Source of the DNA: a virus | DNA: 49,956 nt | Direction: 5' to 3' (one strand) | IMG/VR virus record: IMGVR_UViG_3300035698_021428 | The notes under the pieces: model-generated | Database searches by the model: none | Told to the model about the DNA's origin: nothing | The model's input: only the letters and a program-made list of their open reading frames with translations | Shown: positions 7,453 through 42,720 of the stretch, piece by piece | Layout of the letters: each line of letters opens with the position of its first letter | How positions within the stretch are numbered: position 1 is the stretch's first letter | Translations under genes and position numbers: made by a program

Positions 7453-7553
7453 GTCTGCGTAGCTCAACGATAGAGCGCCCAACCTGCGATACAGTGTGCC
7501 CTTGGGAGACTGTCAGCTATGGGATGTTGCTGGTTCGAATCCAGTCGCAGACT
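7453..7553 (+). tRNA. tRNA-like gene (101 nt) with normal acceptor, D and T arms but a ~46-nt irregular anticodon region; anticodon not assignable by eye
   Basis: Acceptor gtctgcg/cgcagac. Arg-like D arm gtagctcaacgatagagc. T arm gctgg-ttcgaat-ccagt. Between them, cccaa...(a/t)tggg encloses the hairpin acagt-gtgcccttgggag-actgt. Confidence 0.5.
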
Positions 7554-10701: not shown

Positions 10702-11158
10702 TAAAAGAGCGTGGAGCATTGAGCGCGCATCCACTGAACGCCGAATCACTGAGCGACATAGTAGTCTTTTTGACTACATGAGCAAGTGAAGCTCTAAAGC
10801 GAACAAGGCGTTGTAGCAGATCCAAACGGACTGTAAAATCTCAAACCTTGTATGTCCCAACCATCGCAGCCCTGTCAGCCATCGAGCATGACAAGGTTAC
10901 TTGAAGGGTAGAGGCATGGATCTGCGATAAGCAGGTTGATGATTGGGAGAAAGTATACATGTTGGTAGTATGGAACCTTTCTGCGCTTAGTTGATCAGTG
11001 AAACAGATCTATAAAAATCTAACCAGCGCATTTACTTCGGGCCGCAGGACCGAAGTATGTGCCGAGCGAAGCGAGGCTACACAGAGAAAGACGTATATAA
11101 TATCTCAAAAATGACGAAGAAGTAATAGTGAGATCTTTTCAGCAACAGATCTTTAGAT
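10702..11158 (+). other. ~457-nt non-coding region rich in local hairpins, directly upstream of tRNA-His/Gln; candidate large structured RNA
   Basis: TAA/TGA stops are frequent in all frames. Hairpins include gtagtc-ttttt-gactac, acttcgg-gccgcagga-ccgaagt and agatct-tttcagcaac-agatct. Family not recognised. Confidence 0.25.
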
Positions 11159-11241
11159 GGTGGCTATGGCAGATTGGTAATGCACCTGGTTGTGGACCAG
11201 GAACCGTAAGGTTTATGCGGGTTCAAATCCCGTTAGTCACC
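11159..11241 (+). tRNA. tRNA-His (GUG) with encoded G-1 and an unusual 15-nt variable arm
   Basis: 5' g-gtggcta resembles E. coli tRNA-His GGUGGCUA. Anticodon arm cctgg-ttGTGga-ccagg. Variable arm aacc-gtaa-ggtt-tat. T arm gcggg-ttcaaat-cccgt. C73. Confidence 0.7.
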
Positions 11242-11249
11242 CTTTAGTT

Positions 11250-11321
11250 TGGGCTTTAGTGTAATCGGTAGCACAACAGTTTTTGATACTGTCAGTCTGG
11301 GTTCAAGTCCCAGTTGCCCAA
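11250..11321 (+). tRNA. tRNA-Gln (UUG)
   Basis: U1:A72. Anticodon arm acagt-ttTTGat-actgt, the same loop as E. coli tRNA-Gln. T arm ctggg-ttcaagt-cccag. Two U-U mismatches at the base of the acceptor stem. Confidence 0.7.
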
Positions 11322-11336
11322 TTTGAAAGGAAATAT

Positions 11337-11648
11337 ATGTCATCGCAATTTCCATCTAAAGTAAGTCAACTACTTCAAAATTTTGATGGTTGGCTTATCG
11401 GTTCTGCAGCTAATCCTGATAATCAAAACCCTAGAGACTTTGATATTCTCATCCCTTTTCATATGTGGCATAAAGCTTGTCTCTCAATACCTGAAAATGC
11501 CATTCCAAATAGCTTTGGCGGATGGAAGTTTATTGATAATAATGTTGAAATAGATATGTGGCCAGGCGATTTATCTTATCTTGCAGCAAGACCTAGATTT
11601 AAATACGCTTACCACTTAGCTAGCGATACCAGAATAAGTAAAATATAA
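11337..11648 (+). CDS. small nucleotidyltransferase-fold (Pol-beta-like) protein, 103 aa
   Basis: The ATG at 11337 follows the tRNA. 'WLIGSAANPDNQNPRDFDILI' fits the hG[GS]...D.D minimal NTase pattern. Confidence 0.5.
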   Translation: MSSQFPSKVSQLLQNFDGWLIGSAANPDNQNPRDFDILIPFHMWHKACLSIPENAIPNSFGGWKFIDNNVEIDMWPGDLSYLAARPRFKYAYHLASDTRISKI

Positions 11649-11672
11649 TCAAATACTTGAAAGGAAAAACAA

Positions 11673-12300
11673 ATGAGAATCGAGAAACAAGCAAAAGGCG
11701 TTAGACTACTCATGAACGACGAGGCTAAGAACCGGAGGTTGGTTCATCAATGCTTGCGTTGAAGCATCAGAAGCCGCTGGCTTCAATGAAATACTGCTTC
11801 CGCTCATTGAGCCAGAAAGTATCTATGAAGAAAAAGCGGGCACTGAGATTCTTAATCAAATGTACACCTTCAAAGACAAGGCAGGAAGAAACCTCTGTCT
11901 AAGACCCGAAGGTACTGCTACTGTCCAACTTGTTGCGCAGAAAATGCGGAACATGAAAGATGTGAAGCTATGGTATGAAACTCGTTGTTGGCGATACGAG
12001 CAGCCGCAGGCTGGGAGATACCGAGAATTCACTCAGTTCGGCGTAGAGTGGCTGAACCCCCGAAACCCTTCAGAGGCCCGAGAAAGTCTAGAAACGCTCG
12101 CCAGAGCGATTGTAGAGCGGCTGGGAGTTGATTACGAGTGGAACGGAACTGCCAAACGAGGATTGGCGTACTATATTGAAGATGGTTTTGAACTAAGCGT
12201 TCCGTCGCTTGTCGCTCAGAAGCAGGTGATTGGCGGTGGGGCTTATACTGAAGGCATCGGATTCGCCGTTGGCGTAGATCGTATTGCGTTGGCAATGTGA
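11673..12300 (+). CDS. histidyl-tRNA synthetase-like class II core (HisRS/HisZ-like, ~210 aa, no anticodon-binding domain), interrupted by a +1 frameshift near 11735-11745; possible pseudogene
   Basis: RBS plus ATG 11673 gives 29 codons, then TGA at 11760. The +1 frame continues with 'FINACVEASEAAGFNEILLPLIEP', 'LRPEGTA', motif 2 'RYEQPQAGRYREFTQFGVE', 'GGGAY' and motif 3 'GFAVGVDRIALAM'. Confidence 0.7.
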
Positions 12301-12374
12301 AAGGCATCCCGTGAAGGTGCGAATCTTTTCGGGATTTTAGACGATATGCTCTCTGCCTACAATAGGAGATTTTC

Positions 12375-12608
12375 ATGCCAGAGCTAACTGAAAAACGAAA
12401 ACGAATACTTGCCCTTGTTGAAACAATAACAGACGAACAAGCAATAGAATTGGTTTCTGAAGAAGAACTTGTTCCTAAGCTTCCTGTATTTCTACCTGCA
12501 AAAATAAGCAAAGAAAAGCTTCTCGAATTAGCTTTGGATATTAGAAAAACATGGCAGCAAAAAAGATCGTTGAAAAAGACGAGGATCTTAAGTGATCGAA
12601 GAATTTAA
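12375..12608 (+). CDS. hypothetical protein (77 aa)
   Basis: ORF track. AGGAG RBS upstream. Confidence 0.55.
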   Translation: MPELTEKRKRILALVETITDEQAIELVSEEELVPKLPVFLPAKISKEKLLELALDIRKTWQQKRSLKKTRILSDRRI

Positions 12609-12783
12609 GCTGTGCAAAGATTGCGGACGAAAAATAGCATACAAAGACGGAACTCCGATGGAGGGAGATTTTTGTACTGATGTCTGCGAATGGCATTACA
12701 ATGTTCCCCAGGAACAAAAAGATAAAATCAAAGAAATGCTTAAGAAAATAAAAGAAGAAGACAACAGAGAGAGCAGGTTCTAA
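12592..12783 (+). CDS. small zinc-ribbon-like protein (63 aa)
   Basis: GTG start. 'CKDCGRK...CTDVCEWH'. Confidence 0.45.
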   Translation: MIEEFKLCKDCGRKIAYKDGTPMEGDFCTDVCEWHYNVPQEQKDKIKEMLKKIKEEDNRESRF

Positions 12784-12788
12784 CCAGG

Positions 12789-13070
12789 ATGACGACAAAG
12801 AGACCTCTTACGACTCGGGAGAAGAATAGGGCTTTAGCTTCTTTATGTAAGAAAAAAGGATGCAAAGACTGCGGGTCTATGAAAAACCTGACTTTTCATC
12901 ACAAAGATCCAAGTCAAAAAATCATGAACATCAGCGACGGGGTGAGAAAAATGGGGGAATCTCGTTTTAGAAAAGAAATAAAGAAATGCGAAGTAGTATG
13001 TCGGGAGTGTCATGATAGGCTTCATGCTTTTGGGACTAGGTTGAATATATCAGTTAAGAGCATAACATGA
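12789..13070 (+). CDS. HNH endonuclease-like protein (93 aa)
   Basis: 'CKDCGS...LTFHHKDPSQK...CEVVCRECHDRLH'. Confidence 0.75.
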   Translation: MTTKRPLTTREKNRALASLCKKKGCKDCGSMKNLTFHHKDPSQKIMNISDGVRKMGESRFRKEIKKCEVVCRECHDRLHAFGTRLNISVKSIT

Positions 13071-13279
13071 CTGAAAATGAGTTAAAATACGGCAAAAAAT
13101 TAAACAGACTTCTTCATAAAAAAGCAATGGGATATGAGGGCTCTATGATTTTTTCTGAAGGAGTATTATACGGATGGAAGAATGCAGGTTTAATAACTGC
13201 TGCTGAAAGCAGTAGGCTTGTCAAGGCATTTTGTACTGAAAATGATGAAATCGATATGACTTACGAATATGGAAGATAA
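13067..13279 (+). CDS. hypothetical protein (70 aa)
   Basis: ATGA-coupled to the HNH gene. The last 9 nt overlap the tRNA-Ser 5' end. Confidence 0.5.
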   Translation: MTENELKYGKKLNRLLHKKAMGYEGSMIFSEGVLYGWKNAGLITAAESSRLVKAFCTENDEIDMTYEYGR

Positions 13280-13355
13280 TCCCGAACGGTGACGGGCACT
13301 ACTTGGAAAGTAGTTGGAGGTTAATAGCCTTGCGGTTCGATCCCGCTGTCTTCCT
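13271..13355 (+). tRNA. tRNA-Ser (GGA), long variable arm, best folded as 8-bp acceptor / 4-bp T stem
   Basis: Acceptor ggaagata/tgtcttcc. D stem cccg/cggg. Anticodon arm actac-ttGGAaa-gtagt. Variable arm tggaggttaatagcctt. T arm gcgg-ttcgatc-ccgc. Confidence 0.8.
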
Positions 13356-14059: not shown

Positions 14060-14065
14060 GTAATT

Positions 14066-14149
14066 GGAAGAGCTTCCGATGGAGCGGTAGTTTGTTTTGA
14101 AAACAAATGTGGTGTAAAAGCCTTGCAGGTTCGAGTCCTGTCTCATCCG
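14066..14149 (+). tRNA. tRNA-Ser (UGA), long variable arm, 7/5 fold with one A-A acceptor mismatch
   Basis: Acceptor ggaagag/ctcatcc. Anticodon arm tttgt-ttTGAaa-acaaa. T arm gcagg-ttcgagt-cctgt. Discriminator G. Confidence 0.7.
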
Positions 14150-14155
14150 TTTATT

Positions 14156-26302: not shown

Positions 26303-26655
26303 GGGGGCGATATGGAATCGCTTCAGTAGGGTAGGAAGGATTGTTGCGAGCCGGGGAACCATGCTTAGGCCCCGTAAAAAAGTATGGAATAATTAGTTGC
26401 CAACAGCAACCCACTCCGCATCGCTGCTTGACAGCGGTGCCTGCAAGTCCTGAACGCCGATACGGGATACGCAGAAGATTTTCGGCTGGTCGTCTGAACA
26501 ACTGTTTCAACCAACAGACGATGAGATAAAGGATGAGACCGCTCCCTGTCGCAGACTGTCGCTGGTCGGCTAGGGGCTAAGATAAAACATCGACTACGCT
26601 CGTAGAAACGCCCAACAAACTACTGAACACGGCGGTTCGAATCCGCCCGCCTCCA
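26303..26655 (+). ncRNA. ssrA: tmRNA (SsrA), tag ANSNPLRIAA
   Basis: 5' GGGGGCGAUAUGGAAUCGC.. pairs with 3' ..GGCGGUUCGAAUCCGCCCGCCUCCA (G3:U70, T arm). The tag ORF GCC AAC AGC AAC CCA CTC CGC ATC GCT GCT TGA lies at 26399-26431. Confidence 0.85.
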
Positions 26656-26664
26656 TTTAGAAAG

Positions 26665-42648: not shown

Positions 42649-42720
42649 GCTTCGTTAGCTCAATGGTAGAGCAATAGTTTCTAAAACTACAGGTTGTCGG
42701 TTCGAGTCCGACACGAGGCA
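42649..42720 (+). tRNA. suppressor tRNA, anticodon CUA (reads UAG); body resembles tRNA-Lys
   Basis: Acceptor gcttcgt/acgaggc. D arm gctc-aatggta-gagc. Anticodon arm atagt-ttCTAaa-actac (anticodon 42681-42683, A27-C43 mismatch). T arm gtcgg-ttcgagt-ccgac. A73. Confidence 0.75.

Follow-up and report, generated by a model that had tools for sequence, protein, structure and literature searches.

The viral sequence of IMG/VR record IMGVR_UViG_3300035698_021428 (49,956 nucleotides [nt], the whole of which we call the window) carries at positions 11673 to 12300 a gene related to histidyl-tRNA synthetase (HisRS) that is divided between two reading frames of the plus strand. The first part, open reading frame 1 (ORF1; 11673..11762, +), lies in the 0 frame and has 29 codons followed by TGA (11760-11762). 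The sequence AAAGGA (11660..11665, +), which we read as its ribosome-binding site, ends 7 nt 5′ of the ATG, and the 29-codon translation is MRIEKQAKGVRLLMNDEAKNRRLVHQCLR. The second part, ORF2 (11746..12300, +), runs in the +1 frame for 184 codons from ATC (Ile25) to the TGA at 12298-12300. The +1 frame is open from 11715 to this TGA, and its first ATG, GTG, or TTG does not occur before 11860. A preliminary description of this DNA, made from the letters alone, had reported a good ribosome-binding site and ATG, 29 codons, a TGA, and a +1 continuation with no start codon, a layout that the sequence bears out. Joined together, ORF1 and ORF2 give a protein of ~208 amino acids (aa). Codons 1 to 24 of ORF1 form the true N terminus of the enzyme, their residues aligning to intact homologues without gaps, and codons 25 to 29 (HQCLR) are decoded only when no shift takes place. 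Around the changeover lie a Shine-Dalgarno (SD)-like sequence within the coding region, GGAGGT (11734..11739, +; frame-0 codons CGG AGG), which is a proposed stimulator and is separated by 3 nt (TTG) from the slip codon; the slip codon itself, GTT (Val24; 11742..11744, +), whose P-site tRNA is proposed to re-pair in the +1 frame on TTC (11743-11745); and the His codon CAT (11745..11747, +), which would occupy the 0-frame A site as a proposed "hungry" sensor and is the sole His codon on the translated path.

The fused window protein matches the Pfam family tRNA-synt_His (PF13393; E = 8e-21). Its score against the NCBIfam hisS model (TIGR00442) is 148 bits, under the cut-off of 286.75 because two domains are absent, and its score against the HisZ model (TIGR00443) is 79.5 bits against a cut-off of 271.65, which places it outside the HisZ family. 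No HisG-like partner was found in Pfam and PHROG scans of the neighboring ORFs. The name HisZ on some database records of this family, which we term mini-HisRS, is an automatic label. The alignment to Thermus thermophilus HisRS keeps motif 1/LRPEGTA, motif 2 (RYEQPQAGRYREFTQ), the HisA motif KRGLAYY, GGGAY, and motif 3 (GIGFAVGVDR), and the catalytic-motif positions are invariant across the mini-HisRS family. There is no counterpart to HisRS residues ~153 to 231 (the ~80-residue insertion domain) or to anything past residue ~318 (the anticodon-binding domain). The profile matches and the Thermus alignment thus agree with the earlier reading of the gene as a HisRS-like catalytic core that lacks the anticodon-binding domain. 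The AlphaFold model of the fused window protein has a predicted local distance difference test (pLDDT) value of 90.6 and a predicted template modeling (TM) score of 0.87, and Foldseek matches it best to HisRS catalytic domains (query TM-scores, 0.78 to 0.87). In this model the junction V24|I25 falls within one continuous helix (residues 16 to 34; pLDDT, 90 to 97). We infer that the gene encodes a 208-aa, catalytic-core-only relative of HisRS with predicted enzymatic activity.

A protein search gave 1051 relatives, most of which are 208 to 216 aa long and intact in one frame, with the pattern MELKIEKQAKGVRII.GEQAKNRRKVLNQMIE... at the start. The eight closest clusters (69 to 71% identity) are shorter (194 to 197 aa), and all of them start with text of the +1 frame (xxxxGGxFIN), because gene callers do so when the same frameshift is present. 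The underlying DNA of one such relative, a 488-kilobase (kb) viral contig (L001), reads ATG..CTG CGG AGG CGT CTT CAT CAA CTC TCT CGC TGA and then continues in the +1 frame. Viral, metagenome, and genome collections supplied 202 loci, to which one annotated phage record was added, and 144 loci of the mini-HisRS family were classified: 79 were intact, 61 carried an automatically detected cassette, one (L114) was frameshifted on inspection, and three were cut by a contig end or not interpretable. The 61 split loci yielded 50 distinct 42-nt cassettes and 54 distinct fused proteins. They reach down to 42% identity to the window, span G+C contents of 37 to 67%, and come from many projects and sequencing platforms, isolate genomes included. 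Their sources are huge phages, among them the cultured 469-kb Sinorhizobium phage Phosso, and isolates of Pseudomonas grimontii, P. amygdali, P. cerasi, P. fragi, P. syringae, Chromobacterium vaccinii, Azospirillum lipoferum, and Thalassospira xianhensis. Chromosomal split copies (L126 to L141 and L150) were seen in Pseudomonas, Chromobacterium, Azospirillum, Thalassospira, and myxobacterial genomes. The preliminary description had suggested a comparison of orthologs, with orthologs intact in one frame counting against the split; intact members do exist, only among the more distant ones, and the closest relatives share the frameshift.

The same split has led to misplaced gene starts in deposited records. 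In Phosso (PV764938.1; L203, 2414-3055), the coding sequence deposited as "histidyl-tRNA synthetase" (XYS97181.1) starts at an internal ATG of the +1 frame. The true ORF1 is unannotated; it begins with the ATG at L203:2414, reads MLRGTRVISGNEARAYTNAIDTLRGCLHRS*, and carries the cassette CGA GGT TGT CTT CAT. The database proteins P0001 to P0008 (146 to 197 aa), P0015, P0031, and P0041 are likewise truncated calls. The fused products are colinear with the one-frame homologues and free of gaps across the junction. In close pairs, the only ones for which it could be estimated because deep pairwise synonymous rates (dS) are saturated, the ratio of nonsynonymous to synonymous substitution rates (dN/dS) was 0.09 to 0.15 for ORF1 in frame 0 and 0.065 to 0.086 for ORF2 in frame +1. 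Recurrence of the same hexanucleotide in 61 independent loci confirms, as far as comparison of sequences can, that the split is real and far beyond chance. Because the two parts are colinear with intact homologues and both under purifying selection, because the catalytic positions are invariant, and because the junction lies mid-helix, both parts must be translated into one chain, which makes the frameshift obligatory.

The position of the shift can be bracketed from the stop codons of relatives. In L043, a member of the window's clade with 70% identity, the 0 frame reads CGG AGG TTA GTT CAT and the +1 frame GGT TAG TTC. Because this +1-frame TAG ends on base 1 of the slip codon, the frame cannot change before the GTT codon. 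In L093, L119, L121, and most of the loci with the cassette at site 25 (see below), a 0-frame stop follows directly after CAY (where Y is C or T), and therefore the change occurs no later than the CAY codon. These two limits confine the predicted shift to the NTT-CAY dicodon, GUU-CAU at 11742-11747 in the window. The preliminary description had instead placed the switch near CGG-AGG and given a rare AGG codon as its possible cause, a placement that the TAG in L043, the cassettes lacking AGG, and the invariant [C/G]TT-CAY two codons downstream all contradict. Cassettes without AGG read, for example, CGG GTG TGT, CGG AAC TGT, CGG AGC TAT, CGA GGT TGT, or CTC AAC TGT. AGG is missing from its position in at least 10 of 32 cassettes (position −9 is A in 22/32) and is missing altogether from L027, L036, L037, L031, L084, L030, L005, Phosso, and the Pseudomonas loci. 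The CGGAGG of the window is better read as a putative SD-like stimulator located 3 nt 5′ of the slip codon, as in prfB.

Across the split genes, [C/G]TT-CA[T/C] is the only invariant element, present in all 50 distinct cassettes. The slip codon is CTT in 36 and GTT in 14 of them, the A-site codon is CAT in 41 and CAC in 9, and the base after CAY is a pyrimidine in 49. Elsewhere in the split genes, CTT makes up 21% of the Leu codons and GTT 26% of the Val codons; in the genes neighboring the P. grimontii copy, CTT accounts for 10 of 154 Leu codons. Every copy in Pseudomonas has CTT CAT in its cassette despite the rarity of CTT among Leu codons in that genus. Positions −12 to −7 keep [C/A]GG[A/G]GG in 27 to 31 of 32 cassettes. 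The SD-like element takes the form GGAGG, GGAG, or AGGGGG and ends 3 nt 5′ of the slip codon, and 43 of the 50 cassettes match the SD consensus over at least 4 nt. In intact homologues, the conserved Arg-Arg is encoded by AGA, CGT, CGA, or CGC (CGG in 2/69 and AGG in 3/69), and no SD-like element is present at these codons. The codon that corresponds to the slip codon is one of at least 12 different codons in the intact homologues, and in-frame NTTCAY is absent from them.

The cassette is not tied to one place in the protein. It occurs 16, 17, 21, or 25 residues past the KGxR motif, and in L005 it lies at residue ~69 to 73, inside the CL|IPE motif, as GTG TGT CTT CAT CCC TGA. In a neighbor-joining tree built with the junction region left out and without support values, the split genes fall into at least six clades that are interleaved with intact ones. 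Taken as a whole, the comparison indicates that the cassette is selected for and not inherited by accident. RNAalifold, run on cassette-anchored alignments of both main classes, found no conserved RNA structure (energy of ~0, no better than column shuffles). A stimulatory RNA structure was rejected accordingly, as the hairpin AACC-GGAGGUU-GGUU of the window and a modest downstream fold (z = −2.25) are not conserved.

The identity of the A-site codon has left a mark on the protein. At the residue after the slip, intact homologues have Leu codons in 47/69 and Ile codons in 9/69, and the split genes all have Ile or Thr (AYN), because the overlapping 0-frame CAY forces AYN. It appears from this pattern that the A-site codon is selected as His and that the protein yielded to the codon rather than the reverse. 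The products are also nearly devoid of histidine. The first 36 distinct fused proteins contain no His in 7,503 residues, the window fusion is also His free, and all 54 fused proteins together contain 4 His in 11,021 residues, 2 of which stem from a mis-set start in L133. The intact homologues contain 41 His in 14,769 residues, with at least one His in 24/69 of them (P = 1.2e-5 by Fisher's test against the first 36 fused proteins). The His found in intact members (L011 to L016, L065 to L072, L081, L108, L110, L120, and L122) is usually single and at residue 92/93. The mini-HisRS family as a whole is His poor (0.28%). Since the product is His free, the CAY at the shift site is the only His codon that a ribosome meets on this path, and it is skipped when the shift succeeds.

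On this evidence we consider it probable, though well short of certain, that the enzyme is made through a programmed +1 frameshift at GUU-CAU and that scarcity of His-tRNA(His) favors its production. The slip mechanism, the dependence on the level of His-tRNA(His), and the catalytic activity of the product are all predictions, which would fit together as follows. A ribosome would start at the ATG at 11673 and read 24 codons, bringing peptidyl-tRNA(Val) onto GUU in the P site and CAU into the A site. If His-tRNA(His) is plentiful, CAU would be decoded and the TGA reached five codons on, yielding a 29-aa peptide and no enzyme; family-wide, ample His-tRNA(His) would lead to the reading of His and a stop after 1 to 14 codons. 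When charged tRNA(His) runs short, the A site would remain empty, pairing of GGAGGU with 16S rRNA's anti-Shine-Dalgarno sequence would strain the P-site pairing, and the peptidyl-tRNA (Leu-GAG or Val-GAC) would slip by one base to UUC, exchanging a G34·U wobble for a G34-C pair. On CUU, re-pairing to UUC would give G·U, A-U, and G-C. Ile-tRNA would then read AUC (Thr-tRNA would read the corresponding codon in CAC cassettes), and the full-length protein would follow. For a slip at GTT-CAT, the predicted junction is ...NRRLV-INACVEASEAAGFNEILLPLIEPESIYEEK, and the expected tryptic junction peptide of the window type is LVINACVEASEAAGFNEILLPLIEPESIYEEK. As the product contains no histidine, its synthesis would be independent of the scarce tRNA. 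Should the enzyme charge tRNA(His), often encoded beside it, a negative-feedback loop would close. HisRS relies chiefly on G−1:C73 of the acceptor stem, and therefore an enzyme without the anticodon-binding domain could still recognize tRNA(His).

The gene sits in tRNA arrays, a setting consistent with the proposed loop. In the window, the array includes tRNA-His(GUG) (11159..11242, +; ARAGORN; Rfam tRNA score, 58.4 bits), with an encoded G−1 (11159) and C73, and tRNA-Gln(UUG) (11249..11322, +; ARAGORN and Rfam). The tRNA-His had been placed 350 nt upstream of the gene in the preliminary description; the true distance is 430 nt, and 350 nt is the distance to the tRNA-Gln. The tRNA-His measures 83 nt; its anticodon loop has the normal 7 nt (TTGTGGA), and its variable region is unusually long (~15 nt). 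Of 65 frameshifted loci, 26 have a tRNA-His no more than 3 kb away, in at least 11 loci a tRNA-His lies 10 to 110 nt 3′ of the gene's stop codon, and nearly all tRNA-His at these loci have "AT" plus the encoded G−1 at the 5′ side and C73. These features might mark a phage-specific pair of tRNA-His and mini-HisRS. Elsewhere, tRNA-His of 87 to 91 nt adjoin intact mini-HisRS genes (noted among L007, L049, L050, L053, L054, and L060).

Other tRNA predictions in the window are more mixed. The CCU-anticodon tRNA of the preliminary description is indeed called by ARAGORN as an 88-nt tRNA-Arg(CCU) at 2026-2113 but is not in the Rfam list at the gathering score, and neither are both tRNA-Ser (13271-13355 and 14065-14150). 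Rfam reports a 101-nt tRNA at 7453-7553 that ARAGORN missed and that possibly bears an intron. Two tRNAs with a CUA anticodon (amber suppressors; 42649-42720 and 45505-45577) are labeled Pyl by ARAGORN and score 68.6 and 63.9 bits with Rfam.

Several other explanations of the split have to be weighed. The same +1 shift at GUU-CAU might be constitutive, serving to give a fixed low yield of enzyme or an extra short peptide, with no sensing of His-tRNA(His). A conserved cassette shows a required frameshift and not regulation, an SD element of the prfB kind can by itself stimulate substantial shifting, and the intact members of the family manage without any frameshift. A constitutive shift would nonetheless leave unexplained why a His codon fills the A site in 50/50 cassettes, at four or five positions in the protein, why Ile or Thr is forced where intact homologues prefer Leu, and why the products of a His-specific enzyme family lack His, and we judge it unlikely, if still worth serious consideration.

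A +1 shift at CGG-AGG itself, caused by a slow, rare AGG and modulated by the phage tRNA-Arg(CCU), has in its favor the CGG AGG of the window and of most cassettes at sites 16 and 17, as well as the ARAGORN call described above. Tandem rare Arg codons provoke +1 shifts in E. coli. Such a shift would run into the TAG in L043, and it accounts neither for the many cassettes that lack AGG nor for the invariant TT-CAY; we give it very little credence.

Just as improbable, in our estimation, is the making of two polypeptides, a 29-aa peptide and a C-terminal protein re-initiated at AUC or AUU with the internal GGAGG, 7 nt upstream, as its ribosome-binding site. The spacing from GGAGG to the ATC (11746) would suit a ribosome-binding site, and ORF1 of many site-25 cassettes ends in CAT-TGA, overlapping ATT. 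In 9 of the 50 cassettes, though, the codon is CAC, which makes the +1 codon ACU and thus no initiator; the protein would moreover be cut in the middle of the helix of residues 16 to 34, and the invariant third-position T of the Leu/Val codon and the His codon would go unexplained.

Quadruplet decoding is similarly hard to credit. Here a special tRNA-His would read CAUC or CAUU, inserting His and moving the ribosome to the +1 frame, as could be imagined from the constant His codon, the pyrimidine that comes after it, and the unusual tRNA-His nearby. The anticodon loop of the window tRNA-His is normal, its oddity being the variable region, and a frameshift-suppressor tRNA-His was rejected on the same ground. 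No tRNA lies near the Pseudomonas loci, the NUU codon and the SD-like element have no part in such decoding, and it would place His where the homologues have Leu or Ile.

An assembly or sequencing indel or a decaying pseudogene, which the single window with its +1 frame lacking a start codon before 11860 could not exclude, is practically dismissed by the split in 61 loci, the purifying selection on both parts, the invariant catalytic residues, a site without a homopolymer, and the recurrence of the cassette at different positions. Of the three options offered in the preliminary description, then, programmed +1 frameshifting stands, shorn of its AGG trigger, and the indel and the pseudogene fall. 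Transcriptional slippage was ruled out by the lack of a homopolymer at the site. Recoding of TGA or TAG was rejected as well: upstream of 11715 the +1 frame has neither a start nor homology, the frame-0 N terminus is the true HisRS N terminus, and no single stop codon read as sense merges the window ORFs distinctively (TAG no more than TGA or TAA), despite the two tRNAs with a CUA anticodon.

For a frameshift at GUU-CAU that senses His-tRNA(His), a number of observations are unfavorable or limit its reach. Re-pairing from GUU to UUC leaves a C·U mismatch at the first position. Seven of the 50 cassettes have no SD match of at least 4 nt; some of these are of the GGGGG type, and in L084 and L030 no convincing element is seen. 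We therefore take the SD-like element as a frequent helper and not a requirement. Many members of the family are intact in one frame and also His poor, and therefore the frameshift would be an optional layer. The HisB motif reads GGGAY, not the canonical GGGRYD of HisRS. The Pseudomonas mini-HisRS genes are not near tRNA genes, and the role of the product there could differ, being, e.g., HisZ-like; their neighbors, which we take from our own reading of the ORF translations and not from family scans, are a GntR-type regulator, a TrmK-like methyltransferase, and a chemoreceptor gene. The locus sample is biased to relatives of the window, and with a tree of the kind used here the number of independent origins of the cassette is uncertain.

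The surroundings of the gene in the window are poorly characterized by homology. The region 11100-13100 has no DNA match, near or distant, among GenBank phages, and Pfam and PHROG scans of the neighboring ORFs gave no match or sub-threshold matches only. A 103-aa ORF at 11337-11648, between the tRNA-Gln and the mini-HisRS gene, has no Pfam or PHROG match; its stretch "GSAANPD...DFDIL" resembles a minimal nucleotidyltransferase motif. Just 3′ of the tRNA/mini-HisRS block, a small ORF (12789-13070) has a weak match to an HNH endonuclease (E = 0.0024, below the cut-off). The window also encodes a transfer-messenger RNA at 26303-26658 (Rfam, 129.6 bits) with the tag peptide ANSNPLRIAA.

In its architecture the cassette resembles that of prfB (AGG GGG UAU CUU UGA C, with features as summarized in PMC5009743 and PMC3711429). 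Both have a short 0-frame ORF of ~25 codons, with the slip at codon 24 here and at codon 25 in E. coli prfB, and the main ORF in the +1 frame; both have an NUU slip codon with a G34·U wobble that re-pairs on the overlapping +1 codon; in both the SD-like element ends 3 nt before the slip codon, and some relatives of the window gene carry the identical AGGGGG; and neither needs a downstream RNA structure. The product is proposed in both systems to act on the A-site codon that competes with the shift. The two differ in that the A-site codon is here CAU or CAC, a sense codon for His, versus UGA in prfB, so that the molecule sensed would be an aminoacyl-tRNA and not a release factor. The codon for re-pairing in the +1 frame is UUC versus UUU, the cassette is found at several positions in a single gene family versus one ancestral position, and the gene is an aminoacyl-tRNA synthetase-like one of phages and some bacteria. 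Among the hallmarks of the prfB type, the colinear split, the re-pairing P-site codon, and the SD-like stimulator are present and a UGA in the A site is absent. To judge from these comparisons, the His cassette works like prfB and is a variant, not a member, of the prfB cassette family.

There is also a likeness to hungry-codon frameshifting, as seen by Gallant and coworkers in E. coli and at CUU-AGG-C of yeast Ty1, in which slow decoding of a sense codon in the A site allows a slippery P-site tRNA to move by +1. The E. coli cases differ as starvation-induced error events rather than devices of gene expression, and the shift in Ty1 depends on tRNA-Arg(CCU), which is constitutively rare, rather than on a tRNA whose charging could be restored by the product; the cassette described here also has no rare AGG in the A site, as the Ty1-like class of hungry codons does. 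A 2016 review of recoding knew of no hungry-codon frameshifting that gives functional, starvation-specific trans-frame proteins (PMC5009743).

Coupling of gene expression to a charged cognate tRNA is familiar from attenuation through the leader peptide of the his operon and from the T-box riboswitches upstream of aminoacyl-tRNA synthetase genes. The goal would be the same here, with expression of a histidine-related or synthetase gene tied to the supply of the charged cognate tRNA. Those systems act on transcription termination or on initiation through RNA structures of the 5′ leader, in contrast to one codon within the coding sequence with a change of frame as output. An Rfam scan of the window found no T-box or other such element.

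As to the protein, mini-HisRS shares with HisRS the class II core with motifs 1 to 3 and the His-specific motifs, and HisRS provides its best sequence and fold matches. It differs from HisRS in also lacking the ~80-residue insertion domain, in its length of 208 aa, and in scoring below the cut-offs of both hisS and hisZ. Like HisZ and the engineered HisRS urzymes, it has no anticodon-binding domain. In contrast to HisZ, it retains the catalytic arginines in motif 2, motif 3, and the HisA motif. The family is natural and widespread, with >1000 proteins. Full-text literature searches found no prior description of this frameshift or of the mini-HisRS family. A GeneTack survey (PMC3711429) lists a "+1 tRNA synthetase" cluster as putative phase variation with no detail, and it could not be linked to the mini-HisRS family. 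Control by a frameshift sensor of charged histidine tRNA looks like something not described before.

We therefore lean, with somewhat better than even confidence, toward viewing the mini-HisRS cassette as the first natural regulatory frameshift at a sense ("hungry") codon, in which a His codon set in a cassette like that of release factor 2 would gauge His-tRNA(His) and switch on a His-free, minimal HisRS-like enzyme that restores the supply. Within a single gene family, repeated inventions or moves of the device would have taken place, and it would be spread over huge phages and proteobacterial chromosomes, where its genes are now annotated as truncated. Its logic would be simple, with the codon of the amino acid handled by the enzyme gating the making of the enzyme.

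Beyond prfB, programmed +1 frameshifting in bacteria is known from essentially only a few genes, and the productive use of hungry-codon frameshifting is an open question for which the mini-HisRS family offers a clean, testable candidate. Cultured systems that carry the cassette are available in Phosso with S. meliloti and in several Pseudomonas species. A natural HisRS core of 208 aa is relevant to minimal synthetases and to orthogonal pairs, and the cassette could serve as a compact sensor of aminoacyl-tRNA levels. Dozens of genes that are called as fragments or from internal starts are in fact complete. For the phages themselves, the arrangement suggests that, while infecting, huge phages keep track of the charging state of a specific tRNA and correct it.

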